Origin: an uncultured Acidobacteriota bacterium
GTDB lineage: Bacteria; Actinomycetota; Acidimicrobiia; Spongiisociales; ZC4RG35
Direction of reading: 5' to 3'
DNA: 64,000 nt
NCBI GenBank assembly: GCA_963734115.1
Contig: CAVTFV010000008.1
Span: 367,537 to 431,536 of the forward strand
Within the stretch, counting starts at the first letter, position 1, and each line of letters starts with the position of its first letter. A model generated the notes under the pieces. That model ran no database searches and was not told the origin of the DNA. It saw only the letters and a program-made list of their open reading frames with translations. The position numbers and the translations under genes are program-made. Below are positions 10,259 to 62,631 of this stretch, one piece after another.

Positions 10259-10342
10259 CGCTCATCAAGAGCGGTGGAGGGACAGGCCCTGCGAAACCGC
10301 GGCAACCGACTCGAACGGTGCCAATGCCTGAACGATGAGTGG
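10259..10342 (+). promoter_or_regulatory. SAM-I (S-box) riboswitch in the metY leader
   Basis: CGCUCAUCAAGAGCGGUGGAGGGACAGGCCCUGCGAAACCGCGGCAACC...GGUGCCAAUGCCUGAAC-GAUGAG matches the SAM-I consensus (P1 CUCAUC/GAUGAG, GGUGGAGGGA, GCAACC and GGUGCCAAUUCC-like boxes). It lies 60 nt upstream of the metY start. Confidence 0.85.
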
Positions 10343-25331: not shown

Positions 25332-26174
25332 CTAGGTCCCTGCGTTGGAAGGGGCGGGAACCGGACGTCGCACCGATCTGAGGGTGAGGACGACGAAGAA
25401 GAGCACGATCGGGATCACCGCCATCGTCGCGGAGCCCGATGTGTTTGCGTGATAGCTGACAAGCAGACCCACCACCACGGACAGGACGCCGATCGCTGCT
25501 GCCGTTGCCATCATCGTCGGGACCCGCTTGACGAGCAGGGCCGCCGTCGCGGGCGGGCCGACGAGTAGCCCGAAGACCAGGAGCGTCCCCACGGTCTGGA
25601 ACGACCCGACGATGGAAATCGTGATGAGGGAGAGCAGTGCAACGTGGGCCATGCCCGGTCGCAGCCCGAAGAGCTGCGCCTTCTGCTCGTTGAACGAGAG
25701 CACCAGGAAATGGCGATAGAAGGCGATCGTCATCACCAGGACGATCACGGCAACGACGGCCAAGGCGACCAGGTCTCCGCTCGTGACGCCGAGGGCATCG
25801 CCGAACAGAATCGTTGTCAGGTTGCCGGCGAAGGAGTCGGTCCTCGATATCAGGATCACTCCGAGACCGAGCATCCCCACGAACAGGAGGCCGATCGCGG
25901 TGTCCTCCGAGAAGCCTGTCTGGCGGTGCACGAAGTTGATTCCCCCGATCATCACGATCGCGGCGAGCACCGCGCCGATCAGGACGTTGAAGTCGAAGAT
26001 GATGGCGATGGCGATGCCGGGGACGACGCCGTGGACCAGGGCATCGCCGAGGAAGGTCATCCCCCGAATTACGACCCAGGTGCCGACCACCGACAGGGCC
26101 AGCGCGGCGAGGACGCCGGCAACGAGCGCCCTCTGCTGGAAGGCGAGTTCGAAGGGCTCGGTCAGCCAGTCCAT
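25332..26174 (-). CDS. znuB: Metal (Zn/Mn) ABC transporter permease
   Basis: 280 aa polytopic membrane protein of the ZnuB/MntB/TroC type (GDALVHGVVPGIA...). Lies in a locus with an SBP, an ATPase and zur. Confidence 0.8.
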   Translation of the reverse strand: MDWLTEPFELAFQQRALVAGVLAALALSVVGTWVVIRGMTFLGDALVHGVVPGIAIAIIFDFNVLIGAVLAAIVMIGGINFVHRQTGFSEDTAIGLLFVGMLGLGVILISRTDSFAGNLTTILFGDALGVTSGDLVALAVVAVIVLVMTIAFYRHFLVLSFNEQKAQLFGLRPGMAHVALLSLITISIVGSFQTVGTLLVFGLLVGPPATAALLVKRVPTMMATAAAIGVLSVVVGLLVSYHANTSGSATMAVIPIVLFFVVLTLRSVRRPVPAPSNAGT

Positions 26175-26192: not shown

Positions 26193-27077
26193 TCATCCCA
26201 GGGCCTCCGAGATTCGACCGGCGTTGGTCACGAGCATCTCGCGAAGTGTCTCCGCCCCCGACCCCAGGCCGCCCAGGGATTCGGTGAACAGCTCGACGAC
26301 CTCGACCTCGCCGCCAAGCTCGGCTGCCACCGCCTCGGCGAGAGAAGTCGGCTGGGTGGTCTCGGCGAAGATCGCGCTGGTACCCGAGTGCTCGATGACC
26401 TCGACCAGATCGGCGAGCTCCGCCGAGGATGGCTCGGCGAGTGTCGAGCCTCCCGGTATCACCACGCCGATTACTTCGAACCCATAGCGGTCGGCGAAGT
26501 ACCCGAACGCTTCGTGGTTGGTCACCATCTCCCGGCGATCCTCAGGCACGGGAGACAACAATTCTTCGATCTCACGATCGGTCGCCGCCATACCGGCGGC
26601 ATAGGAATCCGCCCGCTCCTGCCAACCGCCTGGATGATGCTCATCGAGGGCGGAGGCCACGGCGAGAGCAGCGTCACCGACACGCGCCGGGTCCATCCAG
26701 AAATGGGGGTCAGGGCCGCCATCCCGGAATTCGATCGGTTCGACGAGCGGAGCCACTTCGAGCACCCGCACCCCGTCGTTGGCCACCGACGCCAGCACGT
26801 CTTCCAGCCCGGCCTCGAGGCCCAGCCCGTTGGCGACCACGAGGTCGGCGCGGGCGAGGATGCTCGCCTGCTGGGACGAGGGGGAGAAGTCGTGGGCGTC
26901 GACACCGATGGGAATCAGGACCTCGACATCCCCTTCGTCACCAACCACTCCGGCGGCGACGTCGCCCAGGATCGAAGTGGTCGCCACCACGAGCAGATCG
27001 TCATCCGCTCCCGCAGTCGGGTCGCCGCACCCGGCCAGGGCAACCATGAGACACAGGACCGCTGCGAATACCCTCAT
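26193..27077 (-). CDS. znuA: Metal (Zn) ABC transporter substrate-binding lipoprotein
   Basis: Lipobox LAGCG. The TroA/ZnuA fold carries a His/Asp/Glu-rich loop. Start at MRVFAAV (27077), directly downstream of the Zur box. The long upstream extension is rejected. Confidence 0.8.
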   Translation of the reverse strand: MRVFAAVLCLMVALAGCGDPTAGADDDLLVVATTSILGDVAAGVVGDEGDVEVLIPIGVDAHDFSPSSQQASILARADLVVANGLGLEAGLEDVLASVANDGVRVLEVAPLVEPIEFRDGGPDPHFWMDPARVGDAALAVASALDEHHPGGWQERADSYAAGMAATDREIEELLSPVPEDRREMVTNHEAFGYFADRYGFEVIGVVIPGGSTLAEPSSAELADLVEVIEHSGTSAIFAETTQPTSLAEAVAAELGGEVEVVELFTESLGGLGSGAETLREMLVTNAGRISEALG

Positions 27078-27101
27078 GTTGCGGTTCTCATCCGGCGACC
27101 T

Positions 27102-27122
27102 ATAATGAGAATCATTATCATT
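27102..27122. promoter_or_regulatory. Zur box (7-1-7 palindrome TGAGAAT-C-ATTATCA) in the divergent znuA / zur-znuC intergenic region
   Basis: ATAATGAGAATCATTATCATT matches the actinobacterial Zur operator consensus (TGAnAAT-N-ATTnTCA). It is positioned between divergent promoters. Confidence 0.6.
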
Positions 27123-27146
27123 CAGCGTAGAAATGTTCGTGCCTCG

Positions 27147-27581
27147 ATGCCAATCCAGGAGCGACAGATCGAGGAAAAGCTCGCCGAGACCGGCGTTCGC
27201 TATACGAGCGGACGCCGGCACGTGGTGGCTGCGTTGGAGCGGGTGGACGGCCCCCGGTCCGCCGCTGAGCTTCATCGGGAGATGGGCGGCGAGGTACCGG
27301 TGTCATCGGTGTACAGGACACTGGCGGTCCTCGAGGAGGCAGGGGTGGTCGAGCCTCATCACGGCGCCAGGGGAATCACCAGATACGAGATGGCCGAGTG
27401 GCTGGCCGGTCATCACCATCACCTCGTTTGCATCGAGTGCGGGGCCGTCGAAGACATAGAGCTTCCAGAGCGGCTGGAGGTGGAGCTGGAACGGCTCGTC
27501 GGGCAAGTCTCGGGGCTGGCAGCCTTTTCCGCCGACGGGCACTCTCTCGAGGTCGATGGTCGTTGCGCGAGGTGCCGGTGA
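27147..27581 (+). CDS. zur: Fur-family zinc uptake regulator
   Basis: 144 aa. Fur fold with HHHHLVCIECG...C-x-x-C (CARC) metal sites. It forms only the C-terminal part of a long spurious ORF (25644..27581). Confidence 0.8.
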   Translation: MPIQERQIEEKLAETGVRYTSGRRHVVAALERVDGPRSAAELHREMGGEVPVSSVYRTLAVLEEAGVVEPHHGARGITRYEMAEWLAGHHHHLVCIECGAVEDIELPERLEVELERLVGQVSGLAAFSADGHSLEVDGRCARCR

Positions 27582-36951: not shown

Positions 36952-37971
36952 ATGCTCACCCTGATCAGCCCGGACGGGACCGTTGGCGATCGTCTCCCCA
37001 TCACCCTCGAGGAGATGCGCCGGCTGTATGCCGACATGGTCGAGGCCCGCACCTATGACCACAAGTGCATGGCGATGCAGCGACAGGGGCGCCTGGCCAC
37101 TTACGCCCCCTTCGAGGGGCAGGAGGCGGCGCAGATCGGGGCGGCGGCGGCTCTCAGATCAGACGACTGGGTGGCGGCCACCTATCGAGACGCCGCGCTC
37201 ATGTGGCGGGCCGGATACCCGTGGAGTCTGCTCGTCGCAGGGCGAACCGGTGACGAGCGAGGTGGGCAGGCTCCGGATGGGGTCAACGTGCTTCCGCCAT
37301 CGATCACCGTGGGCGGGCACATGATCCACGCCGTGGGACTGGCCTGGGCCGAGGCGCTCAAAGGCTCGGACCGGGTGGCCCTGACCTCGTTTGGCGACGG
37401 CGCCACGTCCGAAGGCGACTTCCACGAGGCGATGAACTTTGCCGCTGTCTTCAACACGCCGACCGTCTTTCTGTGTCAGAACAACGGCTTTGCCATCTCC
37501 TACCCCCGTGCTGAGCAAACCCGCTCGGAGTCGATTGCGATGAAGGCCGAGGCCTACGGCATGCCCGGGGTCCTCGTCGACGGGAACGACGTTGCCGCTG
37601 TCTTAGACGTGGTGAGCTCGGCGGTGGGTAGGGCACGAAACGGCGAAGGGCCGACTTTGATCGAAGCGGTCACCTACCGGCTCGGCCCGCACACCACTGC
37701 CGACGATCCGGGCCGATATCGAGATGAAGACGAGGCCCTGGAATGGCGTGTGAGAGATCCCCTCGAGCGCGTCCGTCTCCTTCTCGAAAAGGCTGGCGGC
37801 TGGTCTCCCGAATGGCAGTCAGAGCTGGAGACCCGAGCGTCGGATGCGATCGAAGAAGCGGTGGCCATGGCAGAGGCGTTACCGCAGCCGACTGCCGAAG
37901 AGATGCTGCGCCGCATGTACGAGCAGCCCACGACGCCCCTCCAGACTCAGCTGGGGGAGATCGGCCAGTGA
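36952..37971 (+). CDS. 2-oxo-acid dehydrogenase E1 component alpha subunit (PdhA/BkdA-like, TPP-dependent)
   Basis: TPP-binding GDGA(T)SEGDFHEAMNFAA motif; 339 aa. First gene of an E1alpha-E1beta-E2 operon. Confidence 0.85.
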   Translation: MLTLISPDGTVGDRLPITLEEMRRLYADMVEARTYDHKCMAMQRQGRLATYAPFEGQEAAQIGAAAALRSDDWVAATYRDAALMWRAGYPWSLLVAGRTGDERGGQAPDGVNVLPPSITVGGHMIHAVGLAWAEALKGSDRVALTSFGDGATSEGDFHEAMNFAAVFNTPTVFLCQNNGFAISYPRAEQTRSESIAMKAEAYGMPGVLVDGNDVAAVLDVVSSAVGRARNGEGPTLIEAVTYRLGPHTTADDPGRYRDEDEALEWRVRDPLERVRLLLEKAGGWSPEWQSELETRASDAIEEAVAMAEALPQPTAEEMLRRMYEQPTTPLQTQLGEIGQ

Positions 37972-38945
37972 GCGAGCTGACCCTGGCTCAGTCCCTCAAC
38001 GGGGCGCTGGCGACAGCGCTGGAGTCCGACGAGCGGGTGGTGCTTCTAGGGGAGGACATTGGACGGACCGGGGGAGTGTTCCGGATCACCGACGGGTTAC
38101 GGGACAAGTACGGGGAGGATCGGGTGTTCGACACCCCGGTCGCCGAGTCGGGCATCGTGGGAGCGGCGTTCGGGATGGCCATAGCGGGGATGCGTCCCGT
38201 GGCCGAGCTCCAGTTCCTCGGTTTCTCCTATCCGGCATACGACCAGATCATCAACCACGTCGCTCGCATCCGGAACCGCTCCAATCACCGCTTTACCGCG
38301 CCCCTGGTGATACGAGTCCCGTTCGGCGGGGGCATCGGCGCTGCCGAGCATCATTCCGAGTCGACAGAGGCGATTTACGCTCACATCCCGGGGCTGAAGG
38401 TGGTGGTCCCATCGACTCCATCCGACGCGCGGGGGTTGCTTCTGGCGGCAATCGAGGACCCGGACCCCGTTCTCTTCCTCGAACCGATCCGCCTCTATCG
38501 GGCGGTCAAAGAAGACGTTCCCGAGCTGTACTACACCACCGAGATCGGCCCTCTGCGTGTGGAGCGCGAAGGCGACGACATCACACTGGTGTCCTGGGGG
38601 GCGATGATGAAAGAGACCCGCGCAGCGGCGTCCCGTCTCGAGGAATCCGGGGCCTCTGTGGAGGTCCTCGACCTGCGCACTCTCTCCCCGATCGATGGCG
38701 AGGGCATCGTCCGATCCGCGACCAAGACCGGGCGCGTGGTAGTCGTCCATGAGGCACCCCGAACCGCCGGCATGGGCGCAGAGGTCGCCGCCATCGTCCA
38801 GGAACAGGCCCTTTATTCGCTGAAGGCGCCGGTGCGGCGGGTCAGCGGCTGGGACACCGTCTTCCCGCTGAAGCGGTCCGAGGCCCACTACCTTCCGACA
38901 GTGGATCGGATCGTAAGGGTGGCGGAACAGACTCTGGAGGCCTAG
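37968..38945 (+). CDS. 2-oxo-acid dehydrogenase E1 component beta subunit
   Basis: GTG start overlaps the E1alpha stop. Transketolase-like pyrimidine-binding and C-terminal domains (GEDIG..., FDTPVAESGIVG). The ORF-track N-terminal extension is rejected. Confidence 0.85.
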   Translation: MSELTLAQSLNGALATALESDERVVLLGEDIGRTGGVFRITDGLRDKYGEDRVFDTPVAESGIVGAAFGMAIAGMRPVAELQFLGFSYPAYDQIINHVARIRNRSNHRFTAPLVIRVPFGGGIGAAEHHSESTEAIYAHIPGLKVVVPSTPSDARGLLLAAIEDPDPVLFLEPIRLYRAVKEDVPELYYTTEIGPLRVEREGDDITLVSWGAMMKETRAAASRLEESGASVEVLDLRTLSPIDGEGIVRSATKTGRVVVVHEAPRTAGMGAEVAAIVQEQALYSLKAPVRRVSGWDTVFPLKRSEAHYLPTVDRIVRVAEQTLEA

Positions 38946-40204
38946 TGGCGAGGGAATTCGTTCTCCCGGATATCGGCGAAGGCCTCACCGAAGCAGAAAT
39001 CGTGCGTTGGCTCGTCCCCGAGGGAGGGCGGGTCGAGGCCGACCAACCTGTGGTCGAGGTCGAGACCGACAAGGCGGTGGTCGAGATCCCCTCCCCATAC
39101 GCCGGAACCGTCTTGCGTCATGGTGGGGCCGAGGGGGAGACGATTCGGGTGGGGTCGGTGCTCGTGGTGATCGGAGAGGATGGCGAGGTCGAAGCGGCCA
39201 CACCGGCCGCGCCCGAGCCGGAGCCCACACATGCCGCCCCACCGATCGTGGGCAGTCTCAGTGAGGAAGCAGAAGTGCTCTCTCCGGCCGGCCAAACAGC
39301 GGCCGGGGGACAGGCCACAACGATCAAGGCACTTCCCGTCGTGCGCAAGCTGGCCCGGGACATGGGAGTGGATCTCGGACAGATTCGAGGATCCGGCCCT
39401 GAGGGGAGGATCACCCGCGAGGACATCATGGCGGCCGCTCCGCCAAGCTCGGAGACAACGTCGCTCGCCGTCGAGCCGCCGCCACCGGCAGAGGCTGTGG
39501 AGTCCCCCGCCACTGTTTCCGGCGAGGGCGAACGTCGCCCATTGTCCCGTTTGCGCCGGACCATCGCGGCCAACATGGCCAAGAGTTGGGCCGAGATACC
39601 CCACGTCACCACCTTCGATGAGGTGGACGCCACGCGGCTCGTCGAGATCAGATCGGCTCTCGGCGCACGCCACGATGTGAGACTCCCGATGGAGGCGCTC
39701 GTGATCAAGGCGGTGATACCCGCCCTCGAGGCGTTCCCGGAGTTCAACGCGACCCTGGACGGCGACGACCTGATCGTCCATGGCGCCCACGACATCGGAA
39801 TCGCGGTCGATACACCCGATGGCCTCCTGGTGGCAGTGGTCCGCGACGCCGGGCCTAGAGGGATCCTCGACATCGCCTCTGAGGTTCGACGTCTCGGAGA
39901 GGGCGCACGAGAAAGGTCCCTGGCTCCCGACGAGCTGACCGGCCAGACGTTCACGGTCTCCAATATCGGGGCCGTGGGGGGTGGTCAGGGGACGCCGATC
40001 GTCCCCTACGGGACGACAGCCATCCTCTCGGTGGGCCGAGCACAGGAGAAGGTCGTTGTGAGCAACGGCGATCTGGCGATCGCCCCTGTCATGCCGCTCT
40101 CCCTGTCTTACGACCACCGGGTCATCGACGGCGCCCAGGGACGGCGCTTCATGGCGCTCGTGATCGAGAACCTGGAGGAGCCGGCGCTGTTCCTGGCTGG
40201 TTGA
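38945..40204 (+). CDS. Dihydrolipoamide acyltransferase E2 component (lipoyl domain + E3-binding + catalytic domain)
   Basis: Lipoyl-lysine motif VETDKAVVEIPSP, Ala/Pro linkers, and a catalytic DHRVIDGA motif; 419 aa. Confidence 0.88.
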   Translation: MAREFVLPDIGEGLTEAEIVRWLVPEGGRVEADQPVVEVETDKAVVEIPSPYAGTVLRHGGAEGETIRVGSVLVVIGEDGEVEAATPAAPEPEPTHAAPPIVGSLSEEAEVLSPAGQTAAGGQATTIKALPVVRKLARDMGVDLGQIRGSGPEGRITREDIMAAAPPSSETTSLAVEPPPPAEAVESPATVSGEGERRPLSRLRRTIAANMAKSWAEIPHVTTFDEVDATRLVEIRSALGARHDVRLPMEALVIKAVIPALEAFPEFNATLDGDDLIVHGAHDIGIAVDTPDGLLVAVVRDAGPRGILDIASEVRRLGEGARERSLAPDELTGQTFTVSNIGAVGGGQGTPIVPYGTTAILSVGRAQEKVVVSNGDLAIAPVMPLSLSYDHRVIDGAQGRRFMALVIENLEEPALFLAG

Positions 40205-40207
40205 TCG

Positions 40208-40774
40208 ATGCCCCACGTTCATGTGACACCTGCCGATGAAGCGGTCGGGACCGCCAAACTGGAATACGACGCCGCCACGAGACGAGCCGGGCGTATCTGG
40301 AACATCGTGTCGATCCAGAGCCAGCTTCCCGAAGTGATGCGGGACTCGATGCGCCTCTACTCCACGATCATGTTCGGCGATTCACCTCTGACCCGGGCCC
40401 AGCGGGAAATGATCGCCGTGGTCACCTCGCAGGTGAACGAGTGCCACTACTGAATAGCGGCGCACCTACACGACCTCCGGGATGAGGTCGACGATCAACA
40501 GATGGTGGACCGGTTCGCCGAGGACTGGAGGAGCGCCGGCCTCGACGAGCCCACGATGGCCCTGCTTCTCTTCGCCGAGCGACTGACCGACGACTGCGCC
40601 TCAGTTGGCGCAGAGGATGTCACCGAGCTGAGAAGGCACGGCTATGACGACCGGGCGATCTCCAGTTGTGTCCAGGTCGTTGCCTACTTCAACTACATCA
40701 ACCGGATCGCCGAGGGCCTCGGTGTGGCGCCCGAGGACTGGATCGATGAGGTCGGGAGAGAGACGACGTCCTAG
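40208..40774 (+). CDS. AhpD/carboxymuconolactone-decarboxylase (CMD) family protein with in-frame TGA at the conserved Cys; candidate selenoprotein (C-x-x-U-x3-H)
   Basis: Two ORF-track fragments (40208..40453 and 40502..40774) share one frame and are separated only by the TGA at 40451-40453. Read-through gives VNECHY-U-IAAHLHDL, matching the AhpD catalytic motif C-x-x-C-x-x-x-H with the second Cys replaced. A 7-bp hairpin lies 17 nt downstream (40471-40490). Confidence 0.55.
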
Positions 40775-40783
40775 ATTCGGGTC

Positions 40784-42265
40784 ATGGCAGAAGAGAAGGA
40801 CACCCAAGAAGCCGAAGAGACGCCACCTCCTCCCGAGATCGAAGAGAAGAGCGTCTCCAAGCAATACACCGGGAAGTTCGGCCGGCGCAAGGTCTCCTAC
40901 ACGGCCACTGCCGCCACCCAGATCGTCGAGCAGGAAGACGACAAGAAGGCGATCTTCTTCCACGTCGCATACACCGAAGACGACGCCGACCCGGCGTCAC
41001 GGCCGATTGTGTTCGCCTTCAACGGCGGACCGGGGTCCTCCACCGTTTGGCTCCATCTCGGGCTACTCGGGCCCCGCCGGGTGGAGTTCGACGAGAGCGG
41101 CTTCAAGGTCTCGGTGCCCGGCCGGCTGATCCACAACGAGTATTCGGTCCTCGACGTGGCGGATGTGGTCCTGGTCGATGCGATCGGGACCGGTTTCTCC
41201 ACAGCCACCCCCAAGGACAAGGAGAAAGAGTTCCACCACTTCTCCAAGGACATCGGCGCCTTCACCGACTTCATCGTTTCCTATCTGAACCGGAACGGGC
41301 GGTGGGCCTCCCCCAAGTACGTGGCGGGGGAGAGCTATGGGACCACCAGGGGAGCGGCGATTGCCCACAGCCTCTTCACCGAAAAGGGCACCGAGCTCAA
41401 CGGGCTGATCCTCATCTCAGCGGCCCTCAATTTCCAGACCATCGGCCAGGAGCCCGATGCCATGGTCTTCCGGCCGGGAAACGACCTCCCTTTCATGCTG
41501 TTCCTGCCTACCTACGCGGCGACCGCCTGGTACCACGGCCGGCTCTCGAACAAGCTCCAAGCGAGGAAGCTCCGTGACCTCCTCGATGAGGTGGAGGCGT
41601 TCGCCATCGGCCCCTACTGGTCGGCGCTGGCCCGGGGCGATGCGCTCGGGGACACCGAACGAAAGAGGGTGACAGCCAAGCTCGCGGCATACACCGGGCT
41701 CTCAGCCGACTACATCGATCGGTACAACCTCCGGATCCATATCCATCGGTTTTGCAAGGAGCTGATGAGGGACCAGCGACGCACGGTTGGCAGGCTCGAC
41801 TCGCGATTCACCGGGATCGACCGGATCGCCGCCGGCGACAATCTGGAGAACGACCCCGCCCACGACCAGATCGGCGGGCCCTTCACCGCCACCTTGAACG
41901 ATTATCTGCGAGTCGAGCTGGGCTTCGAGAACGACTCCTTCTACGAGACCCTGAACATGAAGGTGAACGAGTCATGGGACTACGAGGAGTTCAAGGGGCA
42001 CTACGTCGACACCTCGGAGCAGCTACGGGACGTCCTCTCCCGATCACAGCGCCTGCAGGTGCTGGTGGCGAGCGGGTATTACGACCTGGCCACGCCCCAT
42101 TTCGCCACCGACTACACCATCAGCCATCTCGGCCTGGACGAGTCACTGCGCAAGAACATCCGGACGGAGTTTTACGAGGCGGGCCACATGATGTACCTGC
42201 AGCGTCAATCGCTGAATGCCCTAGCCGGTCATCTGAGAGCCTTCATCGAGGACACCTCGAGCTGA
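40784..42265 (+). CDS. S10 family serine carboxypeptidase
   Basis: NGGPGSS and GESYGT motifs characteristic of peptidase S10; 493 aa; acidic N-terminus. Confidence 0.75.
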   Translation: MAEEKDTQEAEETPPPPEIEEKSVSKQYTGKFGRRKVSYTATAATQIVEQEDDKKAIFFHVAYTEDDADPASRPIVFAFNGGPGSSTVWLHLGLLGPRRVEFDESGFKVSVPGRLIHNEYSVLDVADVVLVDAIGTGFSTATPKDKEKEFHHFSKDIGAFTDFIVSYLNRNGRWASPKYVAGESYGTTRGAAIAHSLFTEKGTELNGLILISAALNFQTIGQEPDAMVFRPGNDLPFMLFLPTYAATAWYHGRLSNKLQARKLRDLLDEVEAFAIGPYWSALARGDALGDTERKRVTAKLAAYTGLSADYIDRYNLRIHIHRFCKELMRDQRRTVGRLDSRFTGIDRIAAGDNLENDPAHDQIGGPFTATLNDYLRVELGFENDSFYETLNMKVNESWDYEEFKGHYVDTSEQLRDVLSRSQRLQVLVASGYYDLATPHFATDYTISHLGLDESLRKNIRTEFYEAGHMMYLQRQSLNALAGHLRAFIEDTSS

Positions 42266-43714
42266 TCAACCCTCCGAATGGGTCTCGACCAGGTCGAGGA
42301 CTTCGGGCATGTCCAGCTCGGGATAAGGATCGGGGGCGAGCAGACCGAGGATCCGGCTCTGAGAGCGAGCCGAGACGATGACCTTGTCCGACCATTTCTC
42401 TTGCAGATCGGGTGCCGCAGTTCGACAACAGCTCGGGTCGGGGCATGTCGAAGTCTGCCGGTTCTCGGTCTCTCGCCCCCGAAACCAGCGCGCCTCGGCG
42501 AAGGGGACCCCGACCGTGACCGCATGAGCCGGTTCCCGTCCGGCCTCGATGTGCGTGGTGCAGAAGTAGGTCCCCTCCGGCGTGTCGGTGTATTGGTGGT
42601 GGGTTCCGTATCGCTCCGCCGAATCGAACGTGATCCGTGAGCCCCACCAGCGGCAGAGACGCTGCGTTTCCATCCCGCCATGGTCATCCCTCGGGATCGG
42701 CGCGTCGTCGTTGGCATAGGCCTTGACCACAGTCCCCATCGCGTCGCTGACGATGACATGGGTCCTGAGGCCGAGGTGGTGAGTCGCCAGATTCGCAGTC
42801 CGCCAGGCGGCCATCTCGTATGAGATGTAGAAGAGCTCCTTGACGTCTTCGACGTCTATGTCGTGGTTGTCCTTTGCTCCGCTCAACCTGGCGACGACCG
42901 CATCCTCCGGCGCGAGGACGGCGGCAGCGAAATAGGCAGTCTCCACCCGTTGGCGCAGGAAGGTGTCGAGATCGGGATCTGTCTCATGTCCGAGGAGGAA
43001 GCCGGCGAGGGTCTGCAAAACCGCCTTGCGAGCCTGACGGGTGCGAAGGGCGTCGCGTTGGGCGATGTAGACCCGGTGATGGTCGAGGTCGATGATCGAT
43101 CGGGCGAACGAGGGCATGTCCTCGACCGGGTGCAACTCGAAGCCGGCGCTGGCGCTCAGGTCGAGCAGGTTCCGCGAGGAGAACGGACCCTCACCGGAGT
43201 ATCCACTCGAGGCAAGAGCGATTCGGGCCTCGGCCTCCACTTCCTTGAGATAGCCGTCGTTGCCCGCGAGCCAGGAGGTCACCTCCCCGTTAGCACGTCG
43301 TACCTCTTCTGAGCCGGCGGACCGCAGGTTGGAACGGTCGCGCAGGGCGTCGTGAAGACCGACCAGGTGGGTCAGGGTCTCATTGTCCAGCTTGGCGCTC
43401 GGCTTGACGGTGGGAAGATGGAGGGAGTCGAAGAATGGGGTTTCCTGTGATCTGAGCAGGGCGATCTCCAGCGCGTCTCTTCGGTTGGGTGGGCTGGGGT
43501 CGAGGAGCTCGGAGAGATCGACCTCGAGAACGGTGGCGATTTCGACGACGAGATTCAATCGAGGCTGCTTCTTGCCGTTCTCGAGCAGTGATAGATAGGG
43601 CGCCGGCCGGTTCACGGCGGCGCCGAGCTCGTCGAGCGTCATACCCCGCTCGCGACGGTGATGACGCAGTCGGCGACCGAGGACGAGCGGGTCCAACTGC
43701 TGCGATTGGGTCAT
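42266..43714 (-). CDS. ramB: RamB-like XRE-family regulator (HTH_XRE + DUF2083 + ImmA/IrrE-type domain), putative repressor of the glyoxylate shunt
   Basis: N-terminal HTH (LGRRLRHHRRERGMTLDELG), 482 aa. It is divergent from aceB-aceA, as with ramB in mycobacteria and corynebacteria. Confidence 0.75.
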   Translation of the reverse strand: MTQSQQLDPLVLGRRLRHHRRERGMTLDELGAAVNRPAPYLSLLENGKKQPRLNLVVEIATVLEVDLSELLDPSPPNRRDALEIALLRSQETPFFDSLHLPTVKPSAKLDNETLTHLVGLHDALRDRSNLRSAGSEEVRRANGEVTSWLAGNDGYLKEVEAEARIALASSGYSGEGPFSSRNLLDLSASAGFELHPVEDMPSFARSIIDLDHHRVYIAQRDALRTRQARKAVLQTLAGFLLGHETDPDLDTFLRQRVETAYFAAAVLAPEDAVVARLSGAKDNHDIDVEDVKELFYISYEMAAWRTANLATHHLGLRTHVIVSDAMGTVVKAYANDDAPIPRDDHGGMETQRLCRWWGSRITFDSAERYGTHHQYTDTPEGTYFCTTHIEAGREPAHAVTVGVPFAEARWFRGRETENRQTSTCPDPSCCRTAAPDLQEKWSDKVIVSARSQSRILGLLAPDPYPELDMPEVLDLVETHSEG

Positions 43715-43798: not shown

Positions 43799-45358
<1,560 letters not shown>

Positions 45359-45369
45359 GGGAGAGAGAC

Positions 45370-46662
45370 ATGTCGCACGTCGCCAACGAAGCCAGCCGGC
45401 TGGCCGACGACTGGAAGGCCAACCCTCGCTGGGAAGGCGTCACTCGGGACTACAGCGCAGAAGACGTGGTGCGGCTCCGAGGAAGCATCAGGGAGCAATC
45501 CACGCTGGCCAATCGAATGGCCATCGCACTCTGGGATCGTCTGACCACAGAGGACTATGTCAGCGCGTTGGGAGCCCTCAGCGGCGGCCAGGCTGTGCAG
45601 ATGGTGAAGGCCGGTCTCAAGTCGATCTATCTCTCCGGATGGCAGGTCGCGGCGGACGGCAATCTCGCCGGGGACGTCTACCCCGATCAGTCGCTCTACC
45701 CATCCACTTCGGCTCCGGCCCTCGTGGAGAGGATCAACAACGCCCTGCGTCGGACGGACCAGATCCATTGGGCTGAGGGCAAGACGGACACCGATTGGTT
45801 CGTCCCAATCATCGCCGACGGGGAGGCGGGATTCGGCGGTTCGCTCAATGTCTTCGAGCTAACCAAGCGATTCATTAAGGCCGGGGCCGCCGGCGTGCAT
45901 TACGAAGACCAGCTGGCGGCAGAGAAGAAATGTGGCCACATGGGGGGCAAGGTCCTGGTGCCGACGGCACAACACATTCGGACCCTGCAGGCGGCGCGTC
46001 TGGCCGCCGACGTGATGGATGTCCCGACTTTGATCGTGGCCCGGACAGACGCCAATGGCGCCACTCTGCTCACCTCCGACGTGGACGAGCGGGATCGGCC
46101 CTTTGTGACGGGCGAGCGCACCGCGGAGGGATTTCACATGGTCAGGAATGGTCTCGAATCGGCGATCGCCCGTGGTAACTCCTACGCGCCGTACGCCGAC
46201 CTGATCTGGTGCGAGACGGCCCAGCCCGATCTCGATGAGGCGAGGGTCTTTGCCGAGGCGATTCATGCCGAGCACCCGGGCAAGATGCTTGCCTACAACT
46301 GCTCGCCGTCGTTCAACTGGTCGAAAAACCTGGATGAGGCGACGATCGGCCGGTTCCAAAAGGAGCTGGGCACGATGGGCTACCGATACCAGTTCATAAC
46401 TCTGGCCGGGTTCCACGCCCTCAACGCATCGATGTTCGAGTTGGCCAGGGGCTATGCCGAGGAGGGAATGCCGGCATATGTCGAGCTGCAGAACCGGGAA
46501 TTCGAGATGGAGGGCGACGGATATACCGCCACCCGGCACCAGCGCGAGGTCGGCGCCGGGTACTTCGACCTGGTGAGCCAGGTGGTCGCGGGCGGGAGCT
46601 CATCCACCCTGGCACTGGAGGGCTCGACCGAAGAGGCGCAGTTCTCGACCCCGATTCAGTGA
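45370..46662 (+). CDS. aceA: Isocitrate lyase
   Basis: KKCGHMGGK catalytic motif; 430 aa. Confidence 0.92.
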
Positions 46663-61025: not shown

Positions 61026-61099
61026 GCGGAAGTAGCTCAGTTGGCTAGAGCGCAACCTTGCCAAGGTTGAGGTCGCGGGTTCGAATCCCGTCTTCCGCT
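61026..61099 (+). tRNA. tRNA-Gly (anticodon GCC)
   Basis: GCGGAAG acceptor stem, cloverleaf with anticodon loop TTGCCAA, T-loop GTTCGAATC. Confidence 0.9.
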
Positions 61100-61125
61100 C
61101 CGACGATTCCCAGTCGTCCGGTCTC

Positions 61126-61199
61126 GGCGACGTGGCCGAGTGGTTAGGCGCGGGTCTGCAAAACCCGTCACACCGGTTCGATTCCGGTCGTCGCCTCCA
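61126..61199 (+). tRNA. tRNA-Cys (anticodon GCA), CCA encoded
   Basis: GGCGACG acceptor stem, anticodon loop CTGCAAA, T-loop GTTCGATTC. Confidence 0.9.
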
Positions 61200-61212
61200 A
61201 GGAGGAACAAGA

Positions 61213-61287
61213 GGGCCCTTAGCTCAGCCCGGCTAGAGCGCTTGCTCGACACGCAAGAGGTCACTGGTTCAAGTCCAGTAGGGCCCA
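61213..61287 (+). tRNA. tRNA-Val (anticodon GAC)
   Basis: GGGCCCT acceptor stem, anticodon loop TCGACAC, T-loop GTTCAAGTC. Confidence 0.9.
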
Positions 61288-61291
61288 CGAC

Positions 61292-62554: not shown

Positions 62555-62631
62555 GGGCGATTAGCTCAGTTGGCTAGAGCGCGCGCCTCACACGCGCGAG
62601 GTCACTGGTTCAAGTCCAGTATCGCCCACCA
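62555..62631 (+). tRNA. tRNA-Val (anticodon CAC), CCA encoded
   Basis: GGGCGAT acceptor stem, anticodon loop CTCACAC. Its 3' half (GAGGTCACTGGTTCAAGTCCAGTA) is identical to that of tRNA-Val(GAC) at 61213. Confidence 0.9.

Follow-up and report, generated by a model that had tools for sequence, protein, structure and literature searches.

Nucleotides 40208-40774 of the window, by which we mean the whole 64-kb stretch of DNA that was analysed, in all probability constitute a genuine gene for an AhpD-like (TIGR01926) selenoprotein, in which UGA-82 is predicted from the sequence to be read as selenocysteine (Sec) and is followed by a conserved bacterial SECIS element. This interpretation had been put forward in the original prediction; the observation behind it was confirmed, and the reading drawn from it was supported by a comparison with related loci.

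The gene, its protein family and the active site

The two open reading frame fragments at the locus, 40208-40453 and 40502-40774, were found by an ORF and translation check to lie in one frame, as had been claimed, and the single in-frame stop across 40208-40774 (+) is the TGA at 40451-40453. Translation through this codon yields ...VNECHY[TGA]IAAHLHDL..., the same peptide as reported originally, and all of the coordinates given at that time are correct. The gene has the following features:

40208..40774, + strand: AhpD-like (TIGR01926) CDS of 188 codons, with Sec (UGA) as codon 82, an ATG start and a TAG stop
40406..40465, + strand: active-site segment of the translation, with the AhpD proton-relay residues Glu67, Cys79, Tyr81, Sec82 and His86 (E-x11-C-x2-U-x3-H)
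40451..40453, + strand: in-frame UGA, the predicted Sec codon U82, aligned with the second Cys of CxxC
40471..40490, + strand: bacterial SECIS-type hairpin, 7-bp stem 40471-40477/40484-40490, apical loop CGGGAU 40478-40483, -10.2 kcal/mol

For the family searches, Cys was put in place of the TGA. The protein matches Pfam CMD and, with 139.3 bits against a cut-off of 81.8, the NCBIfam model TIGR01926 ('peroxidase-related enzyme') over residues 4-177 of 188, a span that includes the TGA; the proposed membership of the AhpD/CMD family is borne out by both matches. The core-domain model TIGR00778 was passed as well (44.7 vs 27.8). Canonical AhpD (TIGR00777) was ruled out with 21 bits against a cut-off of 191.95, as was the CFYUT (seleno)protein NF041238, which scored 53.4 bits (cut-off 175), the match covering no more than positions 215-342 of its 357-position profile. 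Identity with gamma-carboxymuconolactone decarboxylase (CMD, PcaC) was ruled out by the presence of the CxxU redox motif in the AhpD-like protein, decarboxylase-type members of the CMD family being devoid of a CxxC redox motif (PMC3141380). Since the Pfam CMD match arises through the shared helical core only, the protein is not to be filed as a decarboxylase.

The nearest solved homologues, 2oyo, 2pfx, 3c1l and 6k40 (E 1e-22 to 4e-25), align contiguously over the TGA and place their CxxC on C79 and codon 82. The original prediction had located the UGA at the second Cys of a CxxCxxxH motif and had proposed an alignment with Sec- and Cys-containing homologues as a check; in this alignment the TGA stands opposite TGC or TGT in 12 distant loci, and opposite the Cys of the orthologues L078, L079 and L088 and of the four PDB homologues, in agreement with that placement. 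Glu67, Cys79, Sec82 and His86 are invariant among 65 Sec-type sequences, Sec substituting for the second Cys of E-x11-C-x2-C-x3-H. The AhpD proton relay is formed by Glu118/Cys130/Cys133/His137 in the M. tuberculosis enzyme and by Glu36/Cys48/Tyr50/Cys51/His55 in PA0269 (PMC3141380). In M. tuberculosis AhpD, Cys133 is the exposed residue that attacks AhpC (PMC6626918), and in an alignment of the relay residues TGA82 is its equivalent. By homology, Sec82, situated at the Cys133 position within the Glu67/Cys79/Tyr81/Sec82/His86 relay, would act as the nucleophile, and Cys79 would resolve it with formation of a selenenylsulfide. The 188-residue product would be a small antioxidant-type enzyme, a thiol/selenol oxidoreductase.

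Conservation of the UGA codon and the downstream hairpin

A scan yielded 77 related loci, one genome per species, and the codon homologous to 40451-40453 was taken from each by tblastn-anchored codon extraction. Of the 77 loci, 64 have TGA at this codon; 12 distant homologues with 22-28% identity have TGC or TGT, and a single locus has CTC. The TGA forms occur in Acidimicrobiia (many), Anaerolineales, Chloroflexia, Phycisphaerales and Gemmatimonadales, at identities down to 41%, and also on marine contigs of 32% GC. As the loci were fetched with query-derived peptide words, close Cys forms are under-sampled, and the 64-to-0 ratio among close relatives makes the Sec form look more dominant than it is; the protein search brought out orthologues with TxxC, which form a clade, and a small number with CxxC. 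At conserved residues the codons vary to the same extent before and after the TGA (mean heterozygosity 0.44 and 0.45, respectively).

The 7-bp hairpin that was said to begin 17 nt past the UGA, cgacctc(40471-40477)-cgggat(40478-40483)-gaggtcg(40484-40490), does exist there, and its loop starts 24 nt past the UGA. The published bSECIS model describes a loop of 3-9 nt, a stem of 4-16 bp, a G in the first two loop positions (mostly GG or GU), a distance of 16-37 nt from the UGA, and a minimum free energy (MFE) of -7.5 kcal/mol or lower (PMC13188914). The window hairpin (6-nt loop, 7 bp, 24 nt, -10.2 kcal/mol) lies within all of these limits, and so do the hairpins of 60 out of 62 orthologues; the earlier view that the position and the G-containing loop are typical of bacterial SECIS elements is upheld. 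In the orthologues the loop always starts with C-G-[G/U], its third base being G or U only.

In a single sequence, the hairpin is weak to modest evidence, and it is the comparative evidence that is decisive. The single-sequence fold has a z-score of -1.62 (not significant), the 66-nt MFE structure does not contain the simple hairpin, and in neighbouring genes equally good hairpins by the bSECIS rules follow 3.2% of codon positions (8.8% at -7.5 kcal/mol). An Rfam scan of the window gave no match to a SECIS family, which is uninformative, as Rfam contains no general bacterial SECIS model; the same remark is made in the Actinomarina preprint.

Across the orthologues, the stem is 97-99% paired (97.3%, and 99.1% over 62 Sec-type sequences), compared with 18-51% when the 3' arm is slid, and RNAalifold returns the same stem as the sole consensus structure. 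Pair 36-49 is changed from C-G to U-A in 8-9 sequences and to U-G in 3. A diverse subset that includes the low-GC members shows double changes at three stem pairs, a number reached by only 3 of 500 shuffles. Depending on the sequence set, compensatory changes are seen at 1-3 stem pairs, the visible covariation being limited because the peptide HDLRDEV is itself conserved.

Constraint on the RNA is distinguished from constraint on the protein by the synonymous sites. Within the stem, Leu90 is encoded by CTC (63/63), His88 by CAC (60/60), Glu93 by GAG (62/63), Val94 by GTC (53/54), and Arg91 by CGG or CGT only. Outside the stem, other invariant leucines use 5-6 codons, His86 is divided 27/36 between CAC and CAT, and synonymous variation is seen at Ala85, His86 and Leu87. 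Mean heterozygosity amounts to 0.075 for the stem codons versus 0.446 at 88 other conserved codons (p = 7e-4). On the marine contigs of 32% GC, a hairpin UCUCC-GGUC-GGAGA is found at the same place, made of CTC, CGG, TCG and GAG codons that are atypical of an AT-rich genome. Judging by this anatomy and by the established bacterial mechanism, the loop, which starts with C-G-G, would be bound by SelB.GTP.Sec-tRNA(Sec) while the ribosome is at the UGA 24 nt upstream, and Sec would be inserted at UGA-82 in place of termination.

It had been pointed out originally that selA, selB, selD and tRNA-Sec are absent from the window. This proved right: the tRNA scan and tblastn with E. coli probes were negative over the 64 kb. 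No tRNA-Sec was found in a tRNA scan of 60 related loci either, and the E. coli SelA, SelB and SelD probes gave no tblastn match in any of the flanks. According to a 2026 preprint, selA/B/C/D and ~5 selenoproteins per genome are present in all complete Actinomarinales (class Acidimicrobiia), and the orthologues from the 32% GC marine contigs may come from Actinomarinales.

A second selenoprotein gene in the window was sought among in-frame TGAs with coding signal on both sides by a codon-usage log-odds screen, which was used instead of a GC3-only screen, the latter being unspecific in a 64% GC genome; it left three sites and revealed no such gene. Among in-frame TGA candidates that were rejected, 33765(-) is antisense to RNase J, and 26193(-) is an ordinary stop between two genes:

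26193-27275, - strand: metal-binding lipoprotein gene
25332-26174, - strand: ABC-3 permease gene

These two genes lie in one frame, 18 nt apart, and imitate a gene with an in-frame TGA. A Fur/Zur-like C-terminus is visible at ~27300-27580, on the strand opposite to them. Elsewhere the window holds a SAM riboswitch (RF00162) at 10259-10341 (+), which scores 75.9 bits, far over the gathering score, a tRNA cluster Gly(GCC)-Cys(GCA)-Val(GAC) at 61026-61288 (+), and a separate tRNA-Val(CAC) at 62555-62631 (+).

Three other explanations of the in-frame TGA were weighed. That the UGA is translated, but not as Sec, is very improbable. Cys could be inserted through a SelB/tRNA-Sec-like route, Trp by near-cognate read-through, or the codon could be read under a reassigned code. 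In favour of such a reading, selC-like tRNAs charged with Cys have been proposed for some bacteria, a Sec machinery in this genome is only presumed, and many database entries carry W at the UGA codon. The W entries, however, are gene-caller artefacts on short contigs. Moreover, TGA is the stop codon of 7 of the 10 confidently named neighbouring genes and an internal stop in none of the ten, so the code is standard and not reassigned. The codon also aligns with the redox Cys in a catalogued CxxU selenoprotein family, and the hallmark of SelB-dependent decoding, a conserved SECIS-type hairpin, is present.

We give still less credit to a split gene, in which UGA-82 would be a real stop and two polypeptides, of 81 aa and of 90 aa (from ATG 40502), would form one enzyme. 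The second reading frame does open with ATG 40502, and gene callers routinely give C-terminal fragments of ~104 aa for this family. Nevertheless, the 16 codons from the TGA to this first downstream ATG, including that of the catalytic His86, show the same constraint pattern as the flanking parts of the gene and are conserved as protein, with synonymous variation. Met99 is found in only 56% of orthologues, and the called starts of the fragments vary among entries. Such a split would furthermore sever the active-site helix CxxUxxxH, where the solved homologues are single-chain.

The pseudogene alternative named in the original prediction, that is, a recent TGC-to-TGA nonsense mutation or a sequencing error in an ordinary CxxC AhpD-like gene, is hardly credible and can be regarded as refuted: TGA and TGC are one nucleotide apart, Cys-type positional orthologues occupy the same operon (L078, L079) and the window lacks Sec machinery, but the same TGA is found in 64 of the 77 genomes, in independent assemblies with many synonymous differences among the loci, on either side of it amino acids are conserved to an equal degree while synonymous codons vary freely, and the hairpin downstream has frozen synonymous sites and compensatory changes.

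Operon context and orthologues lacking Sec

The gene of the predicted selenoprotein is the fourth in a row that begins with the genes of a pyruvate dehydrogenase (PDH)-type complex. The surrounding features are:

36952-37971, + strand: PDH-type E1 alpha (TIGR03181, 427 vs cut-off 411)
37968-38945, + strand: E1 beta (family match)
38945-40204, + strand: lipoyl-bearing E2 acyltransferase (family match)
40784..42265, + strand: S10 serine-carboxypeptidase-like gene (Pfam PF00450 on an orthologue; no NCBIfam match)
42266-43714, - strand: RamB-like HTH regulator, divergent
43799-45358: malate synthase A
45370-46662: isocitrate lyase

The E1alpha, E1beta, E2 and AhpD-like genes overlap or abut, the ATG of the last lying 3 nt past the E2 stop codon. 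The S10 gene starts 9 nt past the AhpD-like stop, and this position is conserved in most Acidimicrobiia loci. No promoter- or terminator-like sites were found inside the E1alpha-E1beta-E2-AhpD-S10 block. In ~50 of 57 Acidimicrobiia loci the AhpD-like gene directly follows the end of an E2 gene, and the Cys-type orthologues are placed likewise; the E1alpha-E1beta-E2-AhpD arrangement is absent from the examined loci outside Acidimicrobiia. In L035, L037, L040, L045 and L053 (~2035-2990), a ~316-aa gene, by eye a PRPP synthetase (motif DLHAPQIQGFF), is inserted between E2 and the AhpD-like gene. Past the S10 gene are the RamB-like regulator, malate synthase and isocitrate lyase; their arrangement recurs in L078, a Cys-type genome, and this ties the glyoxylate-shunt genes to the PDH-type operon.

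In M. tuberculosis, electrons pass from NADH through Lpd, DlaT (E2 lipoamide) and AhpD to AhpC and ROOH (PMC12028322), and other AhpD, Ohr and OsmC systems are likewise lipoyl-dependent (PMC8945050). Neither an Lpd nor an AhpC gene was found in the 64-kb window. The conserved operon, viewed together with the M. tuberculosis path, suggests that the selenoprotein is reduced by dihydrolipoamide bound to the neighbouring E2, as M. tuberculosis AhpD is. Going by the conserved gene order, the protein would be co-expressed with the PDH-type E1alpha-E1beta-E2 complex and probably re-reduced on E2; the electrons would then be passed to peroxides directly, or to a peroxiredoxin or an OsmC/Ohr-type partner encoded elsewhere. 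This proposal is consistent with the TxxC orthologues, which retain only the residue at the Sec position.

More tentatively, and with the odds rather against it, the selenoprotein might be a dedicated fourth component of the Acidimicrobiia PDH-type 2-oxoacid dehydrogenase complex, that is, a lipoyl-dependent selenol peroxidase/reductase fed by the dihydrolipoamide of the adjacent E2. No redox residue other than the selenol or thiol at position 82 would then be essential, given that the first Cys has been lost from the TxxC orthologues of the same operon. If the selenoprotein is such a component, the lipoyl arms would be protected, or pyruvate oxidation would be coupled to peroxide removal. The searchable literature on the family contains no mention of a position as the fourth gene of a PDH-type E1alpha-E1beta-E2 operon, and this context may be the sole new aspect of the locus; the E1alpha-E1beta-E2-AhpD(U) operon leads to a testable hypothesis on the physiological reductant of an otherwise uncharacterised family.

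The orthologues that do not carry Sec are of several kinds. The TxxC clade (L078 5001-5570 (P0011) and P0005-P0014) has lost the first Cys and has Cys at the Sec position; its members are positional orthologues in the same E1a-E1b-E2-CMD-S10 operon, and the hairpin is degraded (L078). The CxxC orthologue L079 793-1374 (P0001) has no UGA to recode, yet its 7-bp hairpin is perfect and contains a compensatory double change (GACUUC/GAAGUC); this hairpin may be a relic SECIS element. In another Cys orthologue, L088, the hairpin has one mismatch. A genuine CGA (Arg) is present at the Sec codon of L087 601-1164 (P0012) and also of P0049, and the hairpin of L087 is fully intact (-10.5 kcal/mol). From the sequences, this looks like a recent TGA-to-CGA change, which should inactivate the redox centre. 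Retention of the hairpin in L079 (Cys) and L087 (Arg) shows that its presence does not strictly depend on a UGA. In a quick NJ tree, computed without support values, the CxxC, TxxC and CxxR forms are nested in a broadly Sec-type clade, true CxxC forms being confined to deep outgroups. On the simplest reading of this pattern, Sec may have been lost secondarily, with relic SECIS elements left behind.

In databases, 38 of the 57 full-length homologues (P0002-P0054) have Trp at the Sec column. The DNA of such entries has TGA wherever it was checked (L080, L083-L085, L086), Trp having appeared through translation of TGA under code 4/25 by metagenome gene callers. Some 60 other database entries are C-terminal stubs of ~104 aa. 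The present analysis is of value for annotation, as this orthologue group is almost always mis-called, either as two fragments, as a ~104-aa stub, or as a full-length protein with Trp at the active site. The loci L001-L005, L009, L012 and L056, titled 'uncultured Acidobacteriota', show 82-94% protein identity to loci titled Acidimicrobiia and are fully syntenic with them locally, and their 'Acidobacteriota' label is therefore probably wrong.

Relation to known selenoproteins and AhpD-like proteins

AhpD-like proteins had been called a recognised bacterial selenoprotein family, and the literature agrees. The 'AhpD-like protein' (COG2128) with a CxxU motif entered the literature in 2005 as a selenoprotein family newly found in the Sargasso Sea metagenome, with 27 sequences (PMC1088965). 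In 2008, AhpD-like 1, with 299 sequences in GOS, was among the most abundant selenoprotein families (PMC2398784), and a 2026 review has the entry 'AhpD-like protein, TIGR01926, CxxU' (PMC13188914). Since TIGR01926 is both the model matched here and the catalogued CxxU family, the gene is a member of an already known selenoprotein family and its novelty is low. Its contribution to selenoprotein biology is small, since the CxxU motif, the family itself and this SECIS type have been in the catalogues for about twenty years; the trait is, on the other hand, widely distributed among Acidimicrobiia from soil and groundwater, for which there is little record of Sec use. The likeness to the AhpD-like CxxU family (COG2128/TIGR01926) comprises the model score above cut-off, CxxU with Sec at the second Cys, a bSECIS-type hairpin that follows directly and has a G in its apical loop, and widespread Cys homologues. 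There is no difference in kind: the gene is an unannotated instance of this family in a 64% GC Acidimicrobiia-like genome.

M. tuberculosis AhpD (TIGR00777; Rv2429) belongs to the same CMD/AhpD helical fold family and has the same relay, Glu-x11-Cys-x2-Cys-x3-His. It receives its electrons from E2-bound lipoamide, and the gene studied here adjoins an E2 gene. Its topology, however, is different, with the motif in the C-terminal half, and the motif contains Cys, not Sec; it is, moreover, encoded beside ahpC rather than E2, whereas there is no ahpC near the gene described here. D. radiodurans DR1765 (6k40) and the structural-genomics 'peroxidase-related' proteins 2oyo, 2pfx and 3c1l align with the protein over its whole length, the TGA included, and their CxxC coincides with C79/U82. 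A DR1765 mutant is sensitive to H2O2 in a CxxC-dependent manner (PMC8945050). Unlike the selenoprotein, however, all four are Cys proteins, and none has been reported from a 2-oxoacid dehydrogenase operon. NF041238 ('hypothetical protein 1' of the Sargasso Sea) likewise has CxxU in an AhpD core domain, and the orthologues L036 and L042 even read CFYUT; it differs in its 357-residue architecture, of which the gene described here matches the C-terminal domain only.
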